From the NCBI RefSeq assembly GCF_963921235.1, contig NC_086097.1, positions 67,520,001 through 67,580,000 of the forward strand: 60,000 nucleotides of DNA. Direction: 5' to 3'. The stretch is from Mobula hypostoma (Eukaryota). Made by a program: the position numbers and the translations under genes. Under the pieces are notes generated by a model, which saw only the letters and a list, made by a program, of their open reading frames with translations, was not told the DNA's origin and ran no database searches. Shown here piece after piece: positions 6,262 to 37,850 of the stretch (position 1 is its first letter; each line of letters opens with the position of its first letter).

Positions 6262-7107
6262 TGTTACGTACCCCGTAACTGGGTTGCCAAACCAGCAGAA
6301 ATGGACCACTTAGTTGGAGTCTGGATTACTGGAACTAAGAAAGTTTTATTAAAGAAATAAGCAACACAGTACTCTAATAGTAAGGATATAAATGCAACAA
6401 GTTAGCAATGAATAAACGCACATGTACACGGAACTATGATAATAGGATCAATCAAGCTCTATCGCATTCTAGGGGTAAATGATCAGTTTCAAGTGACGCA
6501 AAGTTCAGTTCAATTTAGTTCAGTTCAGTTCGCAGTAATCGCTGTTGTGCTGTTGGGGCGGAGAGAAGAGAGAGAGCGAAAGCGAATGAATATTCAAAAC
6601 GGATTCCAAACAGACCTTTGATATTCCTCGCAGTTAGCTTTTGGATGAGCCCTTTGTAATGTCTTCTGAGGTCACCGACTGTGACCCCTCCGTTCCAGAT
6701 ACGATCGTTCTTCTGCGGTGAACCCGGCACCCAGGCAAGGGCGGACACACACACCGGGTTCCCGCCCGACCGTATCTTTCCACCCTGTGCGTCTATGGCT
6801 GGTCCCGCGACCAGACCTCCAAAACTCCCACCAGCTTGTGGGGGCACACCGTTTCCAGGGTCTCGTTACCTCGTGGTGTCGTGTGTCTGTTGCCTTAGCG
6901 AATCTGTCCCTTTTTATCCCCCTGCTGGGGTATTGCCTGTCCATCAAACTTCAAACAGTTCAGGATTCAAAGCCACCGGTCTCTGACAATACTCAGAACT
7001 GTGTCTCCTTTTCGTTAATCCCTCTCGTCTCTCATTAACATTTCTGAATGTTCCCCCGTTGTCCTCTTATCGGCATCAATCTTCTGATAATTTGGTCTGT
7101 CGTCACA
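6262..7107 (-). mobile_element. Solo LTR (846 bp) related to the intron-2 Gypsy element
   Basis: TGTTACG...CGTCACA termini; 4-bp TSD ATAC (6258-61 and 7108-11); first ~700 bp align to 21237-21890. Confidence 0.9.
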
Positions 7108-13119: not shown

Positions 13120-14297
13120 TATTATATTGTGACAAGATCTCATCTTTTATATGAAAGCTATGTTAGCTGATTCTGGCATACTGAAACAGGTTAAAATAAT
13201 TTTGTCATAAATTTTTTGTTACGTATAGATATTGATCTGGAAGGATCATATTGAAATGGAATAATGGCTAAAAGTCTTAGTAGCTGTTTGTTGAAGCCAT
13301 TTGATTACAAAGTAAATAGCAATCTTGTCAGATCATATCAAGCAGGTAGTTAGTTCCGAGTGCTTCTCTTGTGGCTTCGTGGTTCTTCTTGTATTTGAAT
13401 GCTAGCCACCTCAAAGCAAGATCAGTAAGATTGAATAAAAAGGTAATGTTTTGGTCCCTGAACTGTGCTGACTGTCTTTGCAACACCAAGCTGTAATATA
13501 AATTATTGGAATGAAATCAATAGCTTGCAACTGCTAGCACATCCTTCAATATACACTTAAGGCATGAAATATTTGCAGATCTGTGAGGAGCATAAGTTAA
13601 CCTCATTTTATTTTGCTTACTTAACAATAAACAGAAGCAATTCTTTATGAGAGATTTGATTGGAACACGTATTTATAAAATGATCATTTCTTGTGCAGAA
13701 CTTAATTACAGGAAGTACAAAATGTTTTATGATAACTTGAGATAACCTTGCAACTCACTCCGAAAAGCAAGCAAACTATCTTGTAGAATAATTAGCATTT
13801 AAAAACAATTTTATGTGACTTTTATCATCTTGGTTTGAGGTATCAAATACTATCAAAAATTTCTGTAATATTTTTGCCAGTTGCTTTCTGACTAAAATGG
13901 TTTCTTAAATGTATAAGTACTTCTGATTAACAGCAATTGATGGACAGCCAAGCATCACCATGTTGACAGTGAAAATAAACTACAATCTTTTAAGGTGTGC
14001 TGTATATAAATCAAGTTATGCCTTGTCCTACCTCTACCAGGGTTTGTGATCTGTGAGATGGAATTTGCCTCTGCTTAGTCTGCAAAAGCAGTAATATAAA
14101 TTTAAAGTTGACTGTTTTCAGTTTACCTTTGGTATAAAACGAATCCTCTTAATTGTGGTTGCAATTTCCAATACTACTTCAACATTGCTTGAGATCAACT
14201 ATTGACACAGTGTTTAGTGTGTTTAGTCTACAAATTATTTTAAATCTTTGGGCTACAAACTATGTAAAGAAGGCTAGGTAGACATTTCCAATCCCAA

Positions 14298-14513
14298 GCA
14301 ACACACATAAAAGTTGCTGGTGAACGCAGCAGGCCGGGCAGCATCTCTAGGAAGAGGTACAGTGGACGTTTCGGGCCGAGACCTGACGAAGGATCTCGGC
14401 CCGAAACGTCGACTGTACCTCTTCCTAGAGATGCTGCCTGGCCTGCTGTGTTCACCAGCAACTTTTATGTGTGTTGCTTGAAATTCCAGCCTCTGCAGGT
14501 TTCCTGGTGTTTG
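14298..14513. mobile_element. Minimal palindromic Penelope-derived insertion
   Basis: ~85-bp near-perfect inverted arms; 15-bp TSD CATTTCCAATCCCAA (14283-97 and 14514-28); hammerhead core CTGACGA...GAAACGTC at 14383-14410. Confidence 0.85.
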
Positions 14514-14625
14514 CATTTCCAATCCCAATCTTGAACTAGAGGGTGCGCAAGAATAAGTTGGATACAATTATACCTAAAACTCAAAGAAGGATACATATTG
14601 TACTTATGAGCAGTTTAAAATAAAC

Positions 14626-15435
14626 GCGCTCACAACATGCTGGAGGAACTCAGCAGGTCGGGCAGCATCCGTGGAAACGATGAGTCGATGTTTCGGGCCG
14701 GAACCCTTTGTCAGGACTGTAGAGGGAAGGGGCAGAGGCCCTATAAAGAAGGTGGGGGGAGGGTGGGAAGGAGAAGGCTGGTAGGTTCCAGGTGAAAAAC
14801 CAGTAAGGGGAAAGATAAAGGGGTGGGGGAGGAGAAGCAGGGAGGTGATAGGCAGGAAAGGTGAAGAAGGAATAGGGGAAAACACAATGGGTAGTAGAAG
14901 GAGGCGGAACCATAAGGGAGGTGATAGGCAGCTGGGGGAGGGGGCAGCGTGACATAGGGATAGAGGAAGGGAGGGGGAGGGAATGACCGGAAGTTGGAGA
15001 ATTCTATGTTCACACCAAGGGGCTGGAGACTACTTAGACAGTATATGAGGTGTTGCTCCTCCAACCTGAGTTTGGCCTCATCATGGCAGTGGAGGAGTCC
15101 AACCTGAGTTTGGCCTCATCATATTCCGCCTCCTTCTACAACCCATTGTTTTTTCCCCTATTCTTCACCTTTCCTGCCTATCACCTCCCTGCTTCCCCTC
15201 CCCACCCCTTTATCTTTCCCCTTACTGGTTTTTTACCTGGTACCTACCAGCCTTCTCCTTCTCACCCTCCCCCCACCTTCTTTATAGGGCCTCTGCCCCT
15301 TCCCTCGACAGTCCCGACAAAGGGTTCTGGCCTGAAATGTCGACTCATTATTTCCACGGGTGCTGCCTGACTTGCTGAGTTCCTCCAGTGTGTTGTGAGT
15401 GTTGCTTTGACCCCAGCATCTGCAGAGTATTTTGT
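14626..15435 (-). mobile_element. Penelope-like element fragment with inverted terminal repeats
   Basis: ~280-bp inverted arms; 13-bp TSD GTTTAAAATAAAC (14613-25 and 15436-48); GIY-YIG C-terminal peptide EEQHLIYCLSSLQPLGVNIEFSNFR. Confidence 0.85.
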
Positions 15436-15514
15436 GTTTAAAATAAACTTAGCTGTGCACAATGTTATACCCTTCTAAAATCTGTTAAGTCAAAGCATCC
15501 AAGGCATTAAATAT

Positions 15515-17068
15515 CCAGCAACACACATGAAAGTTGCTGGTGAACGCAGCAGGCTAGGCGGCATCTCTTAGGAAGAAGTACAGTCGACGTTTCCGGCCAA
15601 GACCCTTTGTCAGGATGAACTGAAAGAAGAGCTAGTAAGAGATTTGAAAGTGGGAGGGGGAGATCCAAAATGATAGGAGAAGACAGGATGGGGAGGGATG
15701 GAGCCAAGAGCTGGACAGTTGATTGGCAAAAGGGATATGAGAGGATCATGGGACGGGAGGCCTAGGGAGAAAGAAAGGGGGAGGGGTGAAGCCCAGAGGA
15801 TGGGCAAGGAGCATAGTGAGAGGGACAGAGGGAGAAAAAGAGAGAGAGAAAAAAGAAAATATATGTATACACATAATAAATAAATAACAGATGGGGTACA
15901 AGGGGGAGGAGGGGCATTAACGGAAGTTAGAGAAGTCAATGTTCATGCCATCAGGTTGGAGGCTACCCAGATGGAATATAAGGTGTTTTTCCTCCAACCT
16001 GAGTGTGGCTTCATCTTGACAGTAGAGGAGGCCGTGGATAGACATGTCAGAATGGGACGTGGAATTAAAATGTGTGGCCACTGGGAGATCCTACTTTCTC
16101 TGGCGGACAGAGCGTGGGTGTTCAGCGAAACAGTCTCCCAATCTGCACTGGGTCTCGCCAATATATAGAAGGTCGCATTGGGAGCACCGGACGCAGTATA
16201 TCACCCCAACCGACTCACAGGTAAAGTGTCGCCTCACCTGGAAGGACTGTCTGGGGCCCTGAATGGTAGTGAGGGAGGAAGTGTAAGGGCATATGTAGCA
16301 CTTGTTCCACTTACAAGGATAAGTGCTGGGAAGATTGGTGGGGAGGGATGGGGGGGGACGAATGGACAAGGGAATTGCGTAGGGAGCGATCCCTGCGGTA
16401 AGCCGGGGGGGGGGGGAGAGGGAAAGATGTGCTTAGTGGTGGGATCCCATTGGAGGTGGCGGAAGCTACGGAGAATTATACGTTGGACCCGGAGGCTGGT
16501 GGGGTGGTAGGTGAGGACCGGGGGACCCTATTCCTAGTGGGTTGACGGGAGGATGGGGTGAGAGCAGATGTGCGTGAAATGGGAGAGATGCGTTTGAGAG
16601 CAGAGTTGATGGCATGAACATTGACTTCACAAACTTGCGCTAATGCCCCACATCCCCCTCGTACCCCATCTGTTATTTATTTATATACACACATTCTTTC
16701 TCTCTCTCTCCTTTTTCTCCCTCTGTCCCTCTGACTATACCCCTTGCCCACCCTCTGGGTTCCACCCCCCCCTTTCCTTCTCCCTGAGCCTCCTGTCCCA
16801 TGATCCTCTCATATCCCTTTTGCCAATCAACTGTCCAGCTCTTGGCTCCATTCCTCCCCCTCCTGTCTTCTCCTATCATTTTGGATCTCCCCCTCCCCCT
16901 CCCACTTTCAAATCTCTTACTAGCTCTTCTTTCAGTTCATCCTGACGAAGGGTCTTGGCCCGAAACGTGGACTGTACCTCTTCCTGGAGATGCTGCCTGG
17001 CCTGCTGCGTTCACCAGCAACTTTTACGTGTGTTGCTTGAAATTCCAGCATCCACAGATTTCCTGGTG
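15515..17068 (-). mobile_element. Penelope-like element with GIY-YIG endonuclease remnant and inverted pseudo-LTRs
   Basis: ORF 16091-16369 reads FTCESVGVIYCVRCSQCDLLYIGETQCRLGDCFAEH; ~430-bp inverted arms; 14-bp TSD AAGGCATTAAATAT (15501-14 and 17069-82). Confidence 0.92.
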
Positions 17069-18545
17069 AAGGCATTAAATATGTTTGTATTCTTGCATCA
17101 AAACAATGGTTTTAAAGCTAGTGAATAGACATTACCTTCAGGGATTGCTAGAGTTAGGAATGATCTGCCTAAATATTCAGGTCTAAAGCAGATGTTCAAT
17201 GACTTGCCACTTGCTTATATACATTTTAAAAAAAAAATCACATTCCAATTGAATGATCTTGTTTTTCAGTATACATTAGCAAGTGGATCTTAGCAGTTGC
17301 AGGAAATGAGAATTGCGTTTCAAATTATCTTTGAAACAATATTCACTTTTTGTAAATCAATTTCTACTATGCGATGAAGGAAATTTTTAACTCTGCCAAT
17401 TCATCCGATGACCACTCTGAGATGGGGTTATTTAAGTGAGGCTTGACTTGCCGTGTTGACATCTATGTTGGAGACGAGCATTATCTTTTTTTTGCTTCAA
17501 ACCTTAGAGTAATGTAATAATGACATTTCATTTGCAATTATAGTAAACATCTAAATTTTATTTTAAAATGAGCTATATTTTGGCATACATTTCTGTACTC
17601 TATTCCCATTACTTTGACCTGGCTGTTTTATCCTGAGTGGCTTCTGCTAGGAACACAAGACTGCACATTTCTTCCTTAAAGAGAAATTATTTGTATTGTT
17701 CCAAACAGCATCTCCAGAAAGCAAGCACACCAAAACGGTCAAGATAATTTAGTCCTAGAAATTCAACCATGTCACACTTGCTGTTTGTGTTACAGTACTT
17801 AAATGAAGTGTAAAATCAATTGGCATTTCCTACCATGCACTCCATCAAAGCAGCTTAGAAATTGGCTGTTCCTCTGCAGATATGCACATATAAGCACAGA
17901 CAACTGGGCATAACACATCGATTTTAGTTATTGTGCAATCCATATTTGATATCAATGCCGAAACTTCAATTCTAATTTGCACCAACGCCATAGGTCCCAA
18001 CCAAAGAAGCATCGCTGAATGGAAAAAATAAATTCTTCTAGCAGTTCTTAAGAGAGCAGATCTATCAGCACCATTGTGTTTGGACAGTGGGGGGTGGGGA
18101 ATAGTAGTTAGTTGACCTAAGCGCTCTTAAAACAATAGTTTACGACCCTGTGGCATTTGGAAAGTGGAGCAGCTTGAGGTAGAGGATGCAAGGACAGGTA
18201 CAGGAACAGATCCACCACTTTTTTTGATCCTCGTATGGACATTATGGCAGCAAAGGTGGACACTTAGAGCTAGAACAAGAAGCAATTCAAATCTACCTGT
18301 CCTCATCCTATTAAAGAAAACATATGGTCTTATGAATAAAATACTTAAAAATTGAGTCCATCAGAACAGACCTCATCCTTTTTCTATTCACATGACGTGT
18401 AGGTCCTGGCAAGTCTAAGATTAATTCCCTGTTCTGAATTCAATGGCTTGCTAGATCATTTGAGAGAACAGTAAAGAGTCAAATGCACACCTTTGTTTCT
18501 GAAAATGATTGTAAGTATCTCCAAAAAGCGTCAGTAAATCCAGTG

Positions 18546-18632
18546 ACACACATAAAAGTTGCTGGTGAACGCAGCAGGCCAGGCAGCATCTCTAGGAAGA
18601 GGTGCAGTCGACGTTTCAGGCCGAGACCCTTC
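18546..18632 (-). mobile_element. Penelope terminal-repeat fragment
   Basis: Near-identical to 14301-14385 and 15521-15607. Confidence 0.8.
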
Positions 18633-18873
18633 GAGGTTGCCATGAGGAAGTAAATCCAGTGGCTGTTTATGATAATCTAGTAGTTTATGGTGCCAACTTT
18701 TTGTTACAGATTTAATTGATTGAATTTCTTCCTCTAGCAATTCTAGTGGTACTTGAAGTAGTGATTCCAGATTATTATTCCAGGCCTCTGCATGGATTCA
18801 GCCACATGATAACTATGCCTACTGAATGCTTTGCATTATCACTGGACATTGTTATCTATTAACCTAAACCTAA

Positions 18874-19753: not shown

Positions 19754-21236
19754 AAGTCGTATATAGTCATAGAAAAGTACAACTCAGGAACAGGCCCTCT
19801 AGCCCACCTAGTCTATGCCAAACCATTTAAACTGCCCACTCCCATTGACCTGCACTGGAACCATAGCCCTTCATACCCTTACCATCCATGTACCTATCTA
19901 AACTTCTCTTAAACATTGAAATCAAGCTTGCATGCACCACTTGTGCTGATAGCTCGTTCCACACTCTCACGACCCTCTGAGTGAAGAGGTTTCCCCTCAT
20001 GTTCCTCTTTAAACTTTTCACCTTTCACACTTAACCCATACTCTCTAGTTATAATCCCACCCAATCTCAGTGGAAAAAGGCTGCTTGCATATCTATACCC
20101 TCTTAATTTTGTATTACCCGATCAAATCTCCACTTAATCTTCTACATACTAAGGAATAAAATCCTAACCTGTTCAATCTTTCCTTATAACTCCGGTTTCC
20201 CAGCCCCAGCAACATCCTTGAAAATTTTCTCTGTACTCTTTCAATCTAATTTGCATCCTTCCTGATTGATTTAGAAGACCAACAACAACAGACCCAATAC
20301 TGATTCCTGCAGCACTCCAGTAGTCACAGGCCTCCAGTCAGAGAGGCAACCATTTACTATCACTCTCTGGCTTCTCCCACAAAGCCAATGTCTAATCTGA
20401 TTTACTACCTCATCTTTAATGCTGAATGACTGAATGTTTTTCACCGACCTCCCATGCAGAGCATTGTCAAATGCCTTGCTAAAGTTCATGTAGACAACAT
20501 CCTCTGCCTTGCCTTCATCAATCTGACTGGTAACTTCCTTGGAAAAACTCTGAGACTGGTTAGACACAGCCTACCATGCATGAAGCCATTCTGACTATCC
20601 CTAGTAAATCCATGTCTATCCACGTACTCATATATCTGGTCCCTTTTAATACCTTCCATTAACTTTCCCACCACTGATGTCAGGCTCACTGGCCTATAAT
20701 TTCCTTTTTATTTTTAGAACATTTTTTAAACAGCAAAACAACATTAGCTGCCCTCCAATCCTCTGCCACTAAGGATGATTTAAATATATGCTAGGTAGGG
20801 CCTCTGTAATTTCTGGACTTGGCCTGCTGCAGGGTCCGTGGGAACATCTTGTCAGGCCCTGGGGATTTATCCACCCTAATTTGCCTCAAAGAGCAAACGC
20901 CTCCTCTGTAATCTGTATAGATTCATGAAGTTGATGCTACTTTGCCTCATTTCCATAGACTCCGTGTTCATCTCCTGAATAAATACAGATGCGAAAAAAT
21001 TTAAGATCTTCCTCATCTCCTTTGGCTCTGCACATAGATTACCATTCTGATGTTCCAGGAGACCAGTTTTGTCCCTTGCAATCCTTTTGCTCTTTAAGTT
21101 ATTGGTAAAATCCCTTGGGATTTTCCATTACCTTGTCTGCTAGGGAAACCTTATGCTATCTTTTAGCCCTCCTGATTCCTTTATTAAGTGTTCTCTTGCA
21201 TTTCTTGTACTCCATAAGCACCTTATTTGTTCCTAC

Positions 21237-22070
21237 TGTTACGTACCCCGTAACTGGGTTGCCAAACCAGCAGAAATGGATCACTCAGTTGGAGTCTGGA
21301 GTACTAGAACTAAGAAAGTTTTATTAAAGAAACAAGCAACACAGTCATCGAAAGGATAATAAATGCAACAATTCAACAATGATAACCACACATGTGCACA
21401 GAATTAAGATAACAGCATCAATCAAGCTCTATCGTTGTCTAGGGGTTAAATGACCAATTTCAAAATGACTCAAAGTTCAGTCCAGTTTGTAGTTCAGTTC
21501 GCAGTAATCGCTGCCATGGCGATGGACAAGGTGGGGGAAGAGAGACAGAATAGGAACAACTGATCATTCAGAACACTGCTTCACTCACAGACCAGCGGGA
21601 TGGCTCACAAACAGCATTTGGGCAGGTCCTTGGTGATGTCACCTGAGGTCACCGACTGTGACCCCTCCTCCAGATGCGGTCGATCCTCTGCAGTGAACCC
21701 GGCACCCAGGCAAGGGCGGACACACACCGGGTTCCCGCTGATCGTACCTTTCCACCCACTCGTGAGAAGCGTACCGCTTCCAGGGTCTCGTTACCTCGGG
21801 TGGCGTGTGTGTCTGTCTTAGCGAACCTGTCCCTTTTTATCCCCCTGCTGGGGTATCGCCTGTCCATCACTTCAAACAGTTCAGGGTTCAAAGGGGGGAG
21901 CCGCTCCAGACAGCTCTTCCTCCCACATCCCTTCATTACACATCTCCAGACGCTGCTCCATTGTTCCTTATCTCTCCTTCCCCTGAGGGCAGGTGGCAGA
22001 CCAACTGCTGATGCCACTGATGCTAGCCCAGGCCAGCAAACATCTTAATTTTATGTGTATTCTCGTAACA
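21237..22070 (-). repeat. 3' LTR
   Basis: Direct repeat of 25213-26046 (offset 3976); no differences found by eye. Confidence 0.97.
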
Positions 22071-22083
22071 CTTCCCCCCTTTA
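22071..22083 (-). other. Polypurine tract
   Basis: AAAGGGGGGAAG abutting the 3' LTR. Confidence 0.85.
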
Positions 22084-22242
22084 AGGATTTTTACCGGGAG
22101 GTAAAAATTACAAACATGACTACATTATCTGATACATACACAATATACATCTTTAACAGTTATTTAGCTAATACAGAGAATTTGAAGCTGTCAACACCTT
22201 GACAGACAGTCATCACATTTTCTGTTCCTTTTACACGTGTTA

Positions 22243-25113
22243 TTAATAACTCCTTAGACCAGGCTCCAACTCAGCAAACTTCATAGTGGCCAAAAACACT
22301 GATGAATTGCGACCAATGTAACCTCTCATTTGGTTTTGTCCCGGACCACAATAACAAGGGTCGTCCCGTTCCGACTCAGTTTTCTCTCGCAAGGGCTTAG
22401 TAGGAGGGGGACGGGTATTGACCGCAGAGTTATTGCAAAACTTCCTGCAGTACCCCACCATCTCCAAAAGCCTTCTGAGGGCCCTCTTGTCTGTCGGGGT
22501 TGGGAGGTCAGCGATAGCCTGCACTGTAGCTTGCATCACTGCCAGCTGCCCCTGTGTCACCACAATTCCCAGGTAAGTGACATTCGTGTGGCTGAATTCA
22601 TTTTTTCCAAGGTTCACTATCAAGCTGGCTTCAGACAGCCGTGTTAAATTGCCAATACACACCTCTGTGTTCATCAGCCCTTTAGTCACTGAATTACTCA
22701 AAAAATATGGGTGTTGTTTACTTGGCCGCCCTATTGTAACAGACATAACCCAACGTCCCAGTTCTTTGCATTTCCTCGGGACAATCAAACACATAGGTGC
22801 GAGTCGTTTAATTACTCCTTCTAAAGATTCGCTTTGTTCGGGGATTAAGGGAGAGACCTTATCAGTAGACCTGGCCAAAACAATAGCCTTCTCCCATCTG
22901 ACCGATCCCATCCTAATCTTTTCAAAATGGTTTTTTCCTCTTATCAGGGGGCCCCTAGCTTCATTGATTTCCACGCTAACACCGACTAGGTTTGTTAGCA
23001 TATCAAAAGCCGGTGACCGTCTCAGTTCGCGTCGGTCATGATCAATAACATTTTTCCCCCTGGGCAGCCGGTAACTCTCTTTCATGATTCCACCAACTGT
23101 TTCCTCCAGCACCGCAAAATGTCCACCGGGGGGTACCTCGTGGGCCATGTTAAAAACCTCATCCCCATAACTCTTTTGCACCACCCCCCACTCCTCATCT
23201 GCGGATGCTGTACTTGATTTCCCTTTCTTCCTTAGCACTTCCTCATCCGCACAATAGCTTGTCAAGGCTGTGTCAGAGAGAGCGGTCTCGGCAAAAACCA
23301 TCAGCCCCTCGTCTCGCTCCTGCGTCTGCACAAATTCTTTCCTGGCTACTGCTACGTCCGTCCCAGCTCCCTCACTACCTCTTATCTCACTACACCCTGT
23401 CTCATACAAGGTTGGCAGGAATGTTTCAGCCAAATTCACCATCGCGGGCGGGGCCTCCATGCTGGCAGGCTGACCCGTCAATCTCACGACTGGGAACACG
23501 ATTCCTCCGGCGATGTCATTACCGAGCAAGACTTCCACGTCTTTCATCGGTAATTCGGACCTCACCCCGATCGTGACTAGTCCAGAGACCAGGTTGCTCT
23601 GTAAATGTATCTGGTGCAAAGGGACTGACTCTGTCCCTTCCCCAACACCTTTGACCTCTACCTCCCCAGTCTGGGTCTCTGAGCTAAACTCTAATACACT
23701 CTTCAATATCAATGACTGACACGCTCCCGTGTCTCTCCAGATCCGCACTGGAACTGGTTTTAACCCCTCCTTCACTGACACCAGTCCGGCCGAGATAAAC
23801 CTCTCGCGCCCTTCCTGGACTTTTTCAGACCTGTCCTTCCCTAGCGGTTCGCTTAACAGCTCAATACAGCCATTCAAAATTTCCGCTTTTCCTTTCCCCG
23901 TCTCCTTCCTTGGGGCAAAGCACCTGGACGCAAAGTGTCCGACTTTCCCACAATTATAACAGACGACTCCAGGAGACTTCCTACCAGACTGCTCCCGGTC
24001 TACCTTATCCTTTTCACTAGTCCCCGGCTTACTTTCTGACTTTTCCGGTGGACTCTCCCCGCCGTCCTGACTACCCTTCTGGTAGCCTTTACTCGGGGCA
24101 ACCTTCATTTTATGCGTCAACGCATACTCATCCGCTAACTTAGCAGTTGCGGCTAACGTGGCTGCCTCTTTCTCATCGAGGTAGGGTCTCATACCCTCAG
24201 GGACACAACCTTTAAACTGCTCAATCAGAACCAGTTGCAGCAGTCTGTCATAATCCCCCTCTACCCCCTTCGAGGCGCACCAACGCTCACAATATGTTTG
24301 CATCTCACGAGCAAACTCCAAATACGTGCGGTCCCACCGCTTCCTCGCATTCCGGAACCTCTGCCGGTATGCCTCCGGGACCAACTCATAAATCCTGAGG
24401 ATGGCCTCTTTCACCACCTCATACCTCTGGGCATCTTCCGGGGATAAAGCTGAGTAAGCTTGTTGGGCCTTCCCTTTCAGTACACTCTGAAGTAAGACAA
24501 CCCACTTATCCCTCGGCCATTCCTGACTTATGGCCACTTTTTCGAAATGGAGAAAGTACCGATCCACATCGGTATCGTCAAATGGGGGAACCAGCCTAAC
24601 CTCCTGGGTCGCCCGGAACCCTCCACCTTGGTTCGGCACGAGCCCCTGCTCGGCCCTTATCTTTAACTTCTCCAGCTCAAATTCCCTTTCCCTCTGTTTC
24701 TCCTCTCTCTCCAACTGTCTGTCCCTCTCTCTCTCTTCTCTCTCCAACTGTCTGTCCCTCTCTCTCTCTTCTCTCTCCAACTGTCTTTCTCTCTCTTGCC
24801 TTTCTACCTCTTTCTCTTTCTCCTGCCTTTCTAACTGCCGTACCCGGAACTCGTGCTCGAGTCTCAGTTTTTCCAGCTGTACCTGTACCGCGTCTCCAGC
24901 AGGTTTTTCAATAGACACCTCCCCCAGCTCACCTTGGGGAAACACACCTTTAGATACATAGTGCTCTACAATAGCTCTGTGTATCTCCTCTCTCCTCATT
25001 GTCGACTTCACCTTAGCAAGATTCACCCGTTTGGCCACAGCTATCAATTCCGATTTCCTGGCATCCTCTAATGCCTCCAAGGTCGGCGCCTTTATAAATT
25101 CCTCAACCTCCAT
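22243..25113 (-). CDS. Gag (SCAN-like capsid, CCHC knuckle)-aspartic protease polyprotein with degenerate integrase and RT stumps, 956 aa
   Basis: FEKVA..WP..KW..LLQSVLKGKAQ / PEAYRQRFR / IEQFK capsid; CYNCGKVGHFASRC; RDTGACQS..LLGND protease; AHEVPPGGH integrase HH; PSKQHPY and VTYLGIVV..AIADLPTP..LRRLLEMVGYCRKF RT pieces. Confidence 0.9.
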   Translation of the reverse strand: MEVEEFIKAPTLEALEDARKSELIAVAKRVNLAKVKSTMRREEIHRAIVEHYVSKGVFPQGELGEVSIEKPAGDAVQVQLEKLRLEHEFRVRQLERQEKEKEVERQERERQLEREERERDRQLEREERERDRQLEREEKQREREFELEKLKIRAEQGLVPNQGGGFRATQEVRLVPPFDDTDVDRYFLHFEKVAISQEWPRDKWVVLLQSVLKGKAQQAYSALSPEDAQRYEVVKEAILRIYELVPEAYRQRFRNARKRWDRTYLEFAREMQTYCERWCASKGVEGDYDRLLQLVLIEQFKGCVPEGMRPYLDEKEAATLAATAKLADEYALTHKMKVAPSKGYQKGSQDGGESPPEKSESKPGTSEKDKVDREQSGRKSPGVVCYNCGKVGHFASRCFAPRKETGKGKAEILNGCIELLSEPLGKDRSEKVQEGRERFISAGLVSVKEGLKPVPVRIWRDTGACQSLILKSVLEFSSETQTGEVEVKGVGEGTESVPLHQIHLQSNLVSGLVTIGVRSELPMKDVEVLLGNDIAGGIVFPVVRLTGQPASMEAPPAMVNLAETFLPTLYETGCSEIRGSEGAGTDVAVARKEFVQTQERDEGLMVFAETALSDTALTSYCADEEVLRKKGKSSTASADEEWGVVQKSYGDEVFNMAHEVPPGGHFAVLEETVGGIMKESYRLPRGKNVIDHDRRELRRSPAFDMLTNLVGVSVEINEARGPLIRGKNHFEKIRMGSVRWEKAIVLARSTDKVSPLIPEQSESLEGVIKRLAPMCLIVPRKCKELGRWVMSVTIGRPSKQHPYFLSNSVTKGLMNTEVCIGNLTRLSEASLIVNLGKNEFSHTNVTYLGIVVTQGQLAVMQATVQAIADLPTPTDKRALRRLLEMVGYCRKFCNNSAVNTRPPPTKPLREKTESERDDPCYCGPGQNQMRGYIGRNSSVFLATMKFAELEPGLRSY

Positions 25114-25189
25114 TTCTGCTGTTTGTCTTTTCTTTCTTTCGGGAATTTTAACCCAATCAATTTACTCCGTCCCAAATTTAGCGTTCAAA

Positions 25190-25208
25190 ATCGCGGACGA
25201 GAACCCCA
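25190..25208 (-). other. Primer-binding site, imperfect tRNA-Pro type
   Basis: TGGGGTTCTCGTCCGCGAT, 4 nt after the 5' LTR, versus canonical tRNA-Pro PBS TGGGGGCTCGTCCGGGAT. Confidence 0.7.
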
Positions 25209-25212
25209 CTTA

Positions 25213-26046
25213 TGTTACGTACCCCGTAACTGGGTTGCCAAACCAGCAGAAATGGATCACTCAGTTGGAGTCTGGAGTACTAGAACTAAGAAAGTTTTAT
25301 TAAAGAAACAAGCAACACAGTCATCGAAAGGATAATAAATGCAACAATTCAACAATGATAACCACACATGTGCACAGAATTAAGATAACAGCATCAATCA
25401 AGCTCTATCGTTGTCTAGGGGTTAAATGACCAATTTCAAAATGACTCAAAGTTCAGTCCAGTTTGTAGTTCAGTTCGCAGTAATCGCTGCCATGGCGATG
25501 GACAAGGTGGGGGAAGAGAGACAGAATAGGAACAACTGATCATTCAGAACACTGCTTCACTCACAGACCAGCGGGATGGCTCACAAACAGCATTTGGGCA
25601 GGTCCTTGGTGATGTCACCTGAGGTCACCGACTGTGACCCCTCCTCCAGATGCGGTCGATCCTCTGCAGTGAACCCGGCACCCAGGCAAGGGCGGACACA
25701 CACCGGGTTCCCGCTGATCGTACCTTTCCACCCACTCGTGAGAAGCGTACCGCTTCCAGGGTCTCGTTACCTCGGGTGGCGTGTGTGTCTGTCTTAGCGA
25801 ACCTGTCCCTTTTTATCCCCCTGCTGGGGTATCGCCTGTCCATCACTTCAAACAGTTCAGGGTTCAAAGGGGGGAGCCGCTCCAGACAGCTCTTCCTCCC
25901 ACATCCCTTCATTACACATCTCCAGACGCTGCTCCATTGTTCCTTATCTCTCCTTCCCCTGAGGGCAGGTGGCAGACCAACTGCTGATGCCACTGATGCT
26001 AGCCCAGGCCAGCAAACATCTTAATTTTATGTGTATTCTCGTAACA
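25213..26046 (-). repeat. 5' LTR
   Basis: Direct repeat of 21237-22070; followed on the minus strand by the PBS. Confidence 0.97.
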
Positions 26047-27527
26047 CTACCTATCTACACCTGCTATGCACCCCCTTTTTTTTCTTAACCAGGGCCTCAA
26101 TATCTCTTGAAAGCCAGGGTTCCCTACATTTGTTTTCTTTACCTTTTATTCTGACAAGCACTTAAAAGCTTTGTACTCTCAAAATTTCACTTCTGAAGGG
26201 CCTGTCCCAGCCCACACTTGCCAGATCCTTTCTGATACCATCAAAATTAGTCTCTTCCAATTTAGAATCCCAACCGATAGATCAGGACTATCTTTTTCCA
26301 TATTTATTTTGAAACTAATAGTATTATAATCACTAGATGCAAAGTGTTCCCCTACACAAACTTGTGTCACCTGCCCTGCCTAATTCCCTAATAGTAGATC
26401 AAGTATCTCACATTCTCTCACTGGGGCTTCTACTTGCTGATTAAGGAAACTTTCCTGAACACATTTGACAAACTCTGTCACATTTTGTCCTTTTATAGTT
26501 TGGGAGTCACAGTCAATATGTGGAAAAGTAAAATCACCTTCTATAGCAACCTACACAAAATGCTGGAGGAACACAACAAGCCAGGCAGCACCTATGGGGG
26601 GAAAAGTACAGTCGACATACAGGACCTGCCGAAGGTACTTTTTTCCATAGATGCTGCCTGGCTTGCTGAGTTCTTCCAGCATTGTGTGTGTGTTGCTTGG
26701 ATTTCCAGCATCTGCAGATTTTTCTCTTCTTTAATAACCTTGTATTTCTTGCAACAGCTTGCGATCTGTACAAATTTGTTCCACTAAATCCCGTGGACTG
26801 TTGGGTGGTCAGTAATACAGCCCCATTAACATGGTCATTCCTTTCTTATTCCTCAGTTCCACGCATAATGCCTCACTAGACGAATTCTCCAGTCTGTCCT
26901 GACTGAGTACACCTATGACATTTTCCCTTGCTAGTAACACCACCCTCCTCCTTTAATTCCTCCCTCTCTATATAAACAACGGAATATTGAGCTGACAGTC
27001 CTGCTACTACTGCAATGAAGTGTTGCTAATATCTACAATATCATAATTTCATGTGTTGATCCAAGCCCTGAGCTTGTCTGTCTTTCCTACATTTATTTCT
27101 TGCATTGAAATATACGCAGTTCAGGACGTCAATAGAATCATATTCAATCTTTTTGATTCCTTTATCTGAGGTCTTAACAGCATCTGTCTTCACAACCTTT
27201 TCAGTTTTCAGGCAACTCTAGTTTGAACATCCCCATGTAGCACTAAAAAACCTTCCTGCTAGGATATTGGTCTTCCTCTCGTTCAGGTGCATACTGTCTC
27301 TTCTGTACAGATCCCACCTTCCCTGGAAGAGAGCCGAATGATCCAAAAATTTGACACACACTCTCCTACACCAATTCCTTAGCCATGTATTAAACTGTAT
27401 AATCTTCCTATTTCTGGCCTTATTACCATGAGCAATCCTGAGCTCACAACCCTGGAGGTCCTGCCCTTTACCTGGCACCTAACTCCCTGAACTCACTTTG
27501 CAAAGCCATGTCACTCTTCCTACCTAT

Positions 27528-37014: not shown

Positions 37015-37850
37015 CAGTGGCGTGCAAAAGTTTGGGCACCCTCGGTCAAAATTTCTGTTACTGTGAATAGCTAAGAGAGTAAAAAATGAACTGATTTCCA
37101 AAAGGCATAAAGTTAAAGATGACACATTTCTTCAATATTTTCAGCAAGAAAACTTTTTTATTTCCATCTTTTACAGTTTCAAAATAACAAAAAAGGAAAA
37201 GGGCCCGAAGCAAAAGTTTGGGCACCCTGTGTGGCAGTACTTAGTAACACCCCGTGGCAAGTATCACAGTTTATAAACTCTTTCTGTAGCCAGCTAAGAG
37301 TCTTTCAATTCTTGTTTGGGGGATTTTCGTCCATTCTTCCTTGCAAAAGGCTTCTAGTTCTGTGAGATTCTTGGGCTGTCTTGCATGCATTGCTCTTTTG
37401 AGGTCTATCCACAGATTCTCGATGATGTTTAGGTCAGGGGACTGTGAGGGCCATGGCAAAACCTTCAACTTGTGCCTCTTGAGGTAGTCCATTGTGGATT
37501 TTGATGTGTGTTTAGGTTCATTATCCTGTTGTAGAAGTAATCCTCTTTTCATCTTCGGCTTTTTTACAGATGGTGTGATGTTTGCTTCCAGAATTTGCTG
37601 GTATTTAATTGAATTCATTCTTCCCTCTACCAGTAAATGTTCCCCGTGCCACTGGCTGCGACACAAACCCAAAGCACGATCGATCCACCCCCGTGCTTAA
37701 CAGTTGGAGAAGGATACTTTTCATGATACTTGCACCCTTTTTTTTCCAAACATATCTTTGCTCATTGCAGCCAAAAAGTTCTATTTTAACTTCAGTCCAT
37801 GGGACTTGTTTCCAAAATGCATCAGACTTGTTTAGATGTTCCTTTGAACC
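37015..37850 (-). mobile_element. Truncated Tc1 (DD34E) transposon with IR/DR end
   Basis: TA-CAGTGGCGTGCAAAAGTTTGGGCACCC with an inner direct repeat at ~37210; QQDNEPKH..WPSQSPDLNIIENLW with 34 residues between D and E. Confidence 0.92.

Follow-up and report, generated by a model that had tools for sequence, protein, structure and literature searches.

The LTR element at 21237..26046 of the window (the whole 60,000-nucleotide stretch of DNA analysed) raises the question of why an element with a dead Pol carries one long reading frame that runs on, still open, through the remains of that Pol.

Element structure and Pol remnants

The element has the structure of a provirus, with a TG...CA LTR pair, a TSD and a polypurine tract (Table 1), in a window without any N. 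Both LTRs agree at 834 of 834 positions and the 4-bp TSD CTAC is perfect on both sides, as the sequence-only reading had described. For the claim of a very recent insertion, the 0 differences in 834 bp bound the age only from above (95% upper limit about 0.36%, by arithmetic). Minority family alleles in both LTRs (e.g. 21301 and 21616 in X1) argue against an assembly collapse in which the LTRs were polished to the majority sequence of the family; gene conversion from one LTR to the other may be the source of the identity. No listed contig bridged the insertion site, where the comparison covered the left flank. The PBS-like stretch may resemble a tRNA-Pro site.

Table 1. Features of the element and its surroundings in the window
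Feature	Position	Strand	Remarks
Solo LTR, related older subfamily	6262..7107	-	own 4-bp TSD ATAC; 660/765 aligned bases identical
TSD CTAC, left copy	21233..21236	+	
3' LTR, 834 bp	21237..22070	-	single AATAAA at 21325-21320
Polypurine tract	22071..22082	-	adjoins 3' LTR
RNase H end, out of frame	22194..22278	-	yields off-frame residues 946-956, continues beyond stop
Single ORF P0001, 956 codons	22243..25113	-	stop 172 nt ahead of 3' LTR
RNase H remnant, residues 921-945, in frame	22279..22353	-	after 86-codon deletion
RT remnant, residues 802-920	22354..22710	-	~127-codon core deletion, dead catalytic motif, another 18-codon deletion, decayed thumb
Junction left by loss of the integrase core and C-terminus (696-729, unalignable), then decayed IN-RT linker (730-801)	22711..23028	-	in frame
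Decayed integrase N-terminal region, residues 590-695	23029..23346	-	HH kept, CC lost; in frame
Aspartic protease, residues 436-545	23479..23808	-	conserved; DTG at 23725-23733
CCHC zinc knuckle, residues 385-398	23920..23961	-	
Capsid including SCAN domain, residues 165-335	24109..24621	-	conserved
Gag E/R-rich coiled-coil repeat, 33-nt units	24664..24864	-	unit number differs in frame among copies
PBS-like stretch, begins TGG	25191..25208	-	4 nt past 5' LTR
5' LTR, 834 bp, TG...CA	25213..26046	-	no mismatch to 3' LTR over 834 bp
TSD CTAC, right copy	26047..26050	+	

The single 956-codon ORF and the clean capsid, CCHC and protease motifs reported earlier were recovered: Pfam places a SCAN/capsid domain (PF02023) at residues 246-335 (E 1e-12) and zf-CCHC at 384-398, and the protease motifs DTG (461) and LLGND line up with intact relatives. 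RT, RNase H and integrase gave no Pfam match up to E 1 in P0001, and an ESM Atlas search of the tail returned nothing beyond RT/RNase H leads, none of them above 0.81. Alignment shows that the integrase retains its HH and has lost its DDE core as well as the two zinc cysteines, and that a CIGN stretch occupies the RT catalytic-motif column, with ~127 codons of the RT core deleted; the kept HH, the missing DDE core and the place of CIGN had been read correctly from the sequence. RNase H had been called absent, but ~25 of its codons persist in frame. The view that Pol is kept fully in frame holds for all three Pol-homologous blocks found by profile search (3/3 in the ORF frame, 0 in the other five frames) and fails for the last ~35 ancestral Pol codons, which lie in another frame (tblastn match 22277-22194, frame -2). 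Compensated frameshifts in the tail were considered and rejected, as the other frames hold no Pol homology save the last ~30 codons. P0001 lacks the set of an intact DDE integrase, RT catalytic motifs and RNase H that would define an autonomous element.

Copies of the family and evolution of the tail

The remnants run in the order IN-N, linker, RT and RNase H, as in full-length relatives, and follow a SCAN-type capsid and protease in one ORF, in keeping with the Gmr1-like affiliation proposed from the position of integrase before RT. The element belongs to a non-autonomous Gmr1-like (Ty3/Gypsy) family that is present in devil rays in high copy number, with annotated relatives in Mobula hypostoma and M. 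birostris. A tree of 10 tails from the two Mobula species arranges the copies as a ladder, one subfamily following another, with the large Pol deletions common to them; the structure is no one-off, and the same deletions recur in many dispersed copies across species. Contigs from organisms B and C span the deletion joints without gaps, 127 contigs have unlike flanks at one LTR end, and high-depth contigs of run X5 differ from the window by 0-2. Run X5 is RNA by guess only, so its coverage was not taken as evidence of transcription, nor was summed contig depth taken as copy number.

The expectation that the ORF would be open in other copies was borne out in part. A P0002 cluster (10 members, loci or isoforms) comprises the only Mobula family proteins seen open end to end, but most annotated copies are broken somewhere, either ending early (P0003, P0004, P0005, P0006, P0008, P0009, P0010, P0011, P0131, P0268, P0275, P0276 and P0288) or starting late (P0131 and P0268-P0271). 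Two of them, P0004 and P0005, have the same late frameshift around residue 857; a second shared frameshift, at an A-run around residue 729, occurs in P0006 and P0276; given these shared frameshifts, some truncated forms may have propagated. A single frameshifted clade of P0004 and P0005 was weakly rejected (p-AU 0.038), and their common break is therefore recurrent or recombined. The proteins were gathered by length-filtered searches favouring open frames, and the window was itself chosen for its open frame. No intact helper was found at 525-1673 aa; only broken intact-type fragments (P0013 and P0274) were seen.

Lineage-specific changes were counted in this family and in intact-type Mobula relatives, with Hypanus as outgroups. 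The counts (family versus intact-type) were similar for capsid (3 versus 4) and protease (14 versus 10; combined 17 versus 14), and far apart for integrase-N (38 versus 3, p 1e-8) and RT/RNase H (39 versus 6, p 5e-7); the NC linker was faster too (13 versus 3). By this comparison, capsid and protease are evolving normally and the Pol tail is racing. The earlier view of a conserved Gag-PR is upheld, as is that of a semi-autonomous Gmr1-like lineage with Pol deletions shared across copies and species. The tail diverges more than Gag-PR in six of six copy comparisons (p<0.05 in five), changing 2-4 times quicker, and its changes are spread uniformly over 10 windows along its length (chi2 3.4, df 9), with no conserved sub-block. 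Among 31 listed ORF variants, the tail has 18 missense, 7 silent and 0 stop, a neutral ratio, and Gag-PR has 2 missense and 4 silent; these counts come from listed variants and are not true dN/dS on the copies' DNA, the variants shown amounting to 40 out of 391 substitutions and 12 out of 62 small indels.

Across 99 polarised residue changes in the tail (at least 119 base changes) there are 0 stops, where ~4.6 would be expected under the lineage's own mutation spectrum (P 0.01). A stop-avoiding mutation bias was rejected as the cause: even with the A-to-G-rich spectrum taken into account, 0.038 stops per missense are still expected. All nine deletions of 4 or more codons keep the frame (P 5e-5 to 8e-4 for an in-frame null of 0.33-0.45), in a count that omits three one-codon insertions because of the concern over compensated frameshifts and in which the junction at 696-729 is not alignable. 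The sole frameshift of the tail lineage falls 11 codons ahead of the stop. Tail residues drift while the propagating lineage lacks both stops and upstream frameshifts, and the selection to keep the frame open that had been suspected is supported by both the stops and the deletions. Stingrays possess a parallel family that displays the same pattern in two genera; its filler is open too but of another kind, being a decayed duplicate of that element's capsid-protease.

Explanations for the open tail

The reading that we favour, at a probability of about 0.62, is that this non-autonomous family provides Gag-PR in cis, borrows RT and integrase, and has its RNA selected for translation nearly to the 3' end, whatever the peptide. 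The family would have spread by way of a long succession of master copies, each element's own RNA yielding Gag-protease that would co-assemble with a helper Gag-Pol supplying RT and integrase. An early stop would create a long untranslated 3' stretch and expose the RNA to nonsense-mediated decay; alternatively, it would impair a packaging that is coupled to translation, as has been reported for IAP 1Δ1. The data favour neither mechanism over the other. Published work describes the IAP 1Δ1 fusion as acting in cis (PMC6466679, PMC7411935) and RSV RNA with a premature stop as degraded and packaged less (PMC5035971). Under selection for translation nearly to the 3' end, in-frame deletions would be the only way for the tail to shrink, and a break would be tolerated nowhere but close to its end. 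Why the tail persists instead of being simply deleted is left unexplained by this reading. A broader version, which we hold tentatively, is that non-autonomous LTR RNAs of rays obey a general rule of translation almost to the 3' LTR, with any filler serving, be it decayed Pol or the stingray capsid-protease copy.

The persistence of ~400 codons over many subfamilies, with an RT thumb still recognisable and 29 of 45 conserved RT columns kept, would be expected if the tail were a repurposed protein (a tether for the helper's RT/IN, a regulator of protease activation or a dominant-negative decoy) on which selection acted loosely but genuinely at the protein level. This idea, already raised in the sequence-only reading, is unlikely, for the rapid, uniform drift leaves no conserved sub-block, the missense/silent ratio among the listed variants is near neutral, 24 of 49 conserved integrase-N columns are broken, in-frame deletions continue to erode the tail, and the stingray filler is unrelated. 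Retention would also follow if the tail RNA held needed cis-signals for packaging or dimerisation, the open frame being a weak side-constraint or the product of lucky template-switch deletions at in-frame microhomologies. Identical short words in the element's coding sequence lie in frame in 37-50% of cases, two motifs that resemble each other meet at the RT deletion joint, and microsimilarity-driven switches are documented in PMC5131818; nevertheless, 9/9 in frame has P 8e-4 even at 0.45 per event, the missing stops are left unaccounted for and the uniform drift gives no hint of a conserved RNA block, making this account improbable.

Chance plus ascertainment is another account: long ORFs were the basis on which both the window and the database proteins were chosen, many copies are broken, and one of many decaying families might have stayed open by chance and been picked for its openness. 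With a joint probability of ~1e-5 or lower, X5 contigs nearly identical to the window and the same pattern in a second family from two stingray genera, we regard this as very unlikely. Least probable of all is that the host keeps a Gag-PR-junk polyprotein to poison autonomous Gmr1 particles. The co-option of the Gmr1 capsid as SCAN in amniotes (bioRxiv 10.1101/2025.03.03.638093) and the lack of an intact helper at the lengths searched agree with such domestication, but identical LTRs, a fresh TSD, >100 insertion flanks and many decayed copies mark a selfish replicating family and not a fixed gene.

Comparison with other non-autonomous elements

Gmr1-like Ty3/Gypsy elements share with the ray element the SCAN-type capsid, the PR-IN-RT-RNase H order, a single fused Gag-Pol ORF, LTRs and a PPT (PMC8220671, PMC11117352, bioRxiv 10.1101/2025.03.03.638093); their ORF is ~1500-1630 aa, whereas that of the ray element is 956 aa, non-autonomous, with integrase core, RT core and most of RNase H deleted. 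The closest known systems are mouse IAP 1Δ1 and plant TR-GAG. IAP 1Δ1 is likewise non-autonomous, with a deletion giving an open Gag-Pol fusion ORF, and outnumbers or out-inserts its helper; its fusion is reported to be cis-acting, an action that we infer for the ray family (PMC6466679, PMC7411935). IAP 1Δ1, however, belongs to the betaretrovirus-like ERVs and carries a single deletion of 1.9 kb, which cuts Gag, whereas the ray family has Gag and protease whole, at least nine successive in-frame deletions and a tail that has drifted ~40% in residues across species. Plant TR-GAG elements, often Copia-derived, are non-autonomous LTR elements as well, which transpose and retain just one ORF, for Gag, and the excerpts seen describe in them no protease with a decayed-Pol tail (PMC8704663); in the ray ORF, protease and a 410-codon tail follow Gag, unlike an element with only Gag. 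In LTR-mediated retrocopies, template switching between microsimilar stretches exchanges or deletes internal portions of the ORF and the products stay mobile as non-autonomous elements, as here, but the ray element is without foreign cargo and its filler is its own Pol (PMC5131818).

The ladder of subfamilies offers a natural graded record of open-frame selection without protein selection, in which residues drift near-neutrally and stops are purged, and genome copies alone allow testing whether vertebrate parasitic LTR elements are shaped by RNA surveillance or by packaging coupled to translation. Neither a transposon's long open frame nor a RefSeq 'gene' built on it is evidence of domestication. 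If the general rule for rays were true, junk frames would stay open for millions of years and in-frame host-gene fusions would be pre-selected, so that chimeric genes could arise with no selection on the protein. As a minor observation on annotation, one RefSeq 'gene' built on a copy of the family bears the name of an unrelated host gene.

Structure and reading frame of the element

The two LTRs of the element are identical over 834 bp, start with TG and end with CA, and a 4-bp target-site duplication (CTAC) borders the element on both sides, in agreement with the sequence-only reading; the window sequence contains no N. A polypurine tract adjoins the 3′ LTR, and a PBS-like stretch starting with TGG, which presumably matches a tRNA, lies 4 nt past the 5′ LTR. 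The absence of differences over 834 bp corresponds arithmetically to an LTR divergence of at most about 0.36%. Because substitution rates are slow in cartilaginous fish, this identity need not imply an age of a few thousand years. Despite the identical LTRs, the window alleles at 22251, 22368 and 24231, all missense, are rare among the contigs of sequencing run X1.

Features of the window (CR1-like and Tc1-like are presumed family labels)
Feature	Position	Strand	Remark
LTR retrotransposon	21237-26046	-	LTR pair and target duplication
Single ORF, 956 codons	25113-22243	-	Stop 172 nt short of 3′ LTR
Insertion target, old LINE-like fragment	20271-21236 and 26050 onward		High-copy in all four runs
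Solo LTR, related older subfamily	6262-7107	-	Has its own 4-bp TSD, ATAC; very close to the element's LTR at one end (93% over 119 nt), different at the other
SINE-like copy cluster	14290-18633		Inverted orientation
SINE-like arms	14290-14381/14394-14485		Just 12 nt apart
SINE-like arms, another pair	14629-14828/15200-15399
CR1-like LINE RT fragments, inverted pair	35263-36476/39322-40537		Complementary at 93-96% for about 1.2 kb
Tc1-like transposase fragment	37271-37696		Between the inverted CR1-like pair
CR1-like endonuclease-RT, near-complete	42425-39410	-	Three pieces

Pfam matched SCAN and a CCHC knuckle in the ORF and no Pol domain, and matches to solved structures were confined to the knuckle, to SCAN and to the region of the RT thumb. 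A profile built from 43 natural full-length relatives recovered three Pol blocks, each of them in the same frame as the ORF. The sequence-only reading of a dead Pol kept fully in frame and lacking RNase H requires correction at two points: about 25 RNase H codons remain in frame, and the final ~35 Pol codons are out of frame, so that the last 11 residues of the ORF are off-frame. Since Pol is destroyed, an autonomous element was rejected. The order of the domains, the SCAN capsid and the presence of just one ORF point to derivation from the Gmr1-like clade, as characterized in PMC8220671, PMC11117352 and bioRxiv 10.1101/2025.03.03.638093; the element is not a TR-GAG as outlined in PMC8704663.

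A family of copies with common deletions

The element is a member of a repeatedly amplified family and not a one-off. A search with its tail returned seven proteins, six of them Mobula hypostoma RefSeq models from the family, and five of these six extend to one or both large deletion joints, which contigs from organisms B and C span without gaps; the same deletions are present in other copies. The divergent Mobula tail P0131 retrieved 26 proteins, including further M. hypostoma and M. birostris tails as well as intact-type Pol fragments, and 127 run X1 contigs exit the LTR end at 21237 into differing flanks. A tree of ten tails (three of seven inner branches starred, two open) forms a ladder of P0131, P0269/P0270, P0271, P0268, P0005 and P0004, with the window element and P0002/P0003 at the tip. 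Its base already carries the large deletions in integrase, RT and RNase H, and the smaller ones accrued stepwise. The retrotransposon ORFs P0002, P0011, P0273 and P0274 are named in RefSeq after unrelated host genes (MACC1, PISD, TRIC-A and HSPB1-associated protein among the names), which suggests intronic insertions annotated as isoforms.

The expectation that the ORF is open in other copies held in part. Among the family proteins seen, in searches that favour long ORFs, only the P0002 cluster (10 members) is open throughout. The remaining ones have an early end or a late start, a pattern that decay of copies once inserted would be expected to produce. The relatives P0004 and P0005 have a common frameshift near residue 857, but their grouping as a clade was weakly rejected (p-AU 0.038), and this break therefore recurred or recombined; copies may be able to do without the final hundred codons. 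P0006 and P0276 are both broken at an A-run close to residue 729, probably through recurrent slippage. No complete helper was present among the 120 matches listed of 584 (525-1673 aa), and the intact-type Mobula pieces P0013 and P0274 are broken as well.

Unequal constraint and maintenance of the frame

Lineage-specific changes were counted against intact-type relatives from Mobula, taken as sisters, with Hypanus serving as outgroup. Window-unique and sister-unique changes numbered 3 versus 4 in the capsid and 14 versus 10 in the protease, consistent with the proposed retention of Gag-protease, and 13 versus 3 in the NC linker, 38 versus 3 in integrase-N and 39 versus 6 in RT/RNase H. The tail differs about 2 to 4 times more than Gag-protease in all six copies spanning both (p<0.05 in five). 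Judged by these comparisons, Gag-protease is conserved and the tail is not.

The frame of this freely drifting tail is nevertheless guarded, with stops and upstream frameshifts depleted. Its 99 polarised residue changes require at least 119 base changes, for which the lineage's own coding-strand spectrum predicts 4.6 stops; none is present (P 0.01). This is a lower bound, as columns differing three ways and the junction that defies alignment were omitted. The frame is also preserved across nine deletions, each between 4 and about 127 codons long and flanked on both sides by in-frame homology (P 5e-5 to 8e-4 for a null in-frame probability of 0.33-0.45, a range that takes microhomology into account). 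A tenth is a frameshift 11 codons ahead of the stop, and a 14-codon in-frame deletion segregates in organisms A and B. These counts support the earlier suggestion of selection for an open frame.

The reading preferred here, at a probability of roughly 0.62, is that RT and integrase would be supplied in trans, that Gag-protease translated from the element's RNA would aid packaging of that same RNA, and that selection would act on translation extending near the 3′ end. The present stop leaves about 0.9 kb untranslated before the poly(A) signal; a stop after the protease would extend this to about 2.1 kb and, before the deletions, by over 3 kb more. According to PMC5035971, a premature gag stop in RSV causes RNA decay and poorer packaging. 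In IAP 1Δ1, the known system that the element would most resemble in its working, a deletion created a Gag-Pol fusion that acts in cis (PMC6466679 and PMC7411935).

That the tail is instead a loosely selected protein is unlikely, given that its changes are even across 10 windows (41/261 columns; chi2 3.4, df 9) and that its 18 missense and 7 silent variants match a neutral split (Gag-protease has 2 and 4), in a small, filtered sample of 31 ORF variants within 40 shown of 391. A need for RNA signals, with frame-keeping incidental, is harder still to credit in view of the missing stops. Chance would gain from the search bias towards long ORFs and is very improbable, and domestication is the least probable of all.

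The observed element and its family are considered real; the listings retrieved from the open-access literature contained no account of this family of rays, nor of any Pol tail that drifts neutrally while its frame is kept.

A parallel stingray family

Two proteins of stingrays, P0028 from Hemitrygon and P0035 from Hypanus, carry a Gmr1 Gag-protease and after it an open stretch of about 300 codons. Roughly 200 codons at the start of this stretch form a decayed second copy of the protein's own SCAN-NC-protease and not Pol. The two proteins differ at 52/400 Gag-protease and 72/295 tail positions and have an identical end point. Together with P0017 and P0076, they represent a separate non-autonomous Gmr1-like family common to the two genera.
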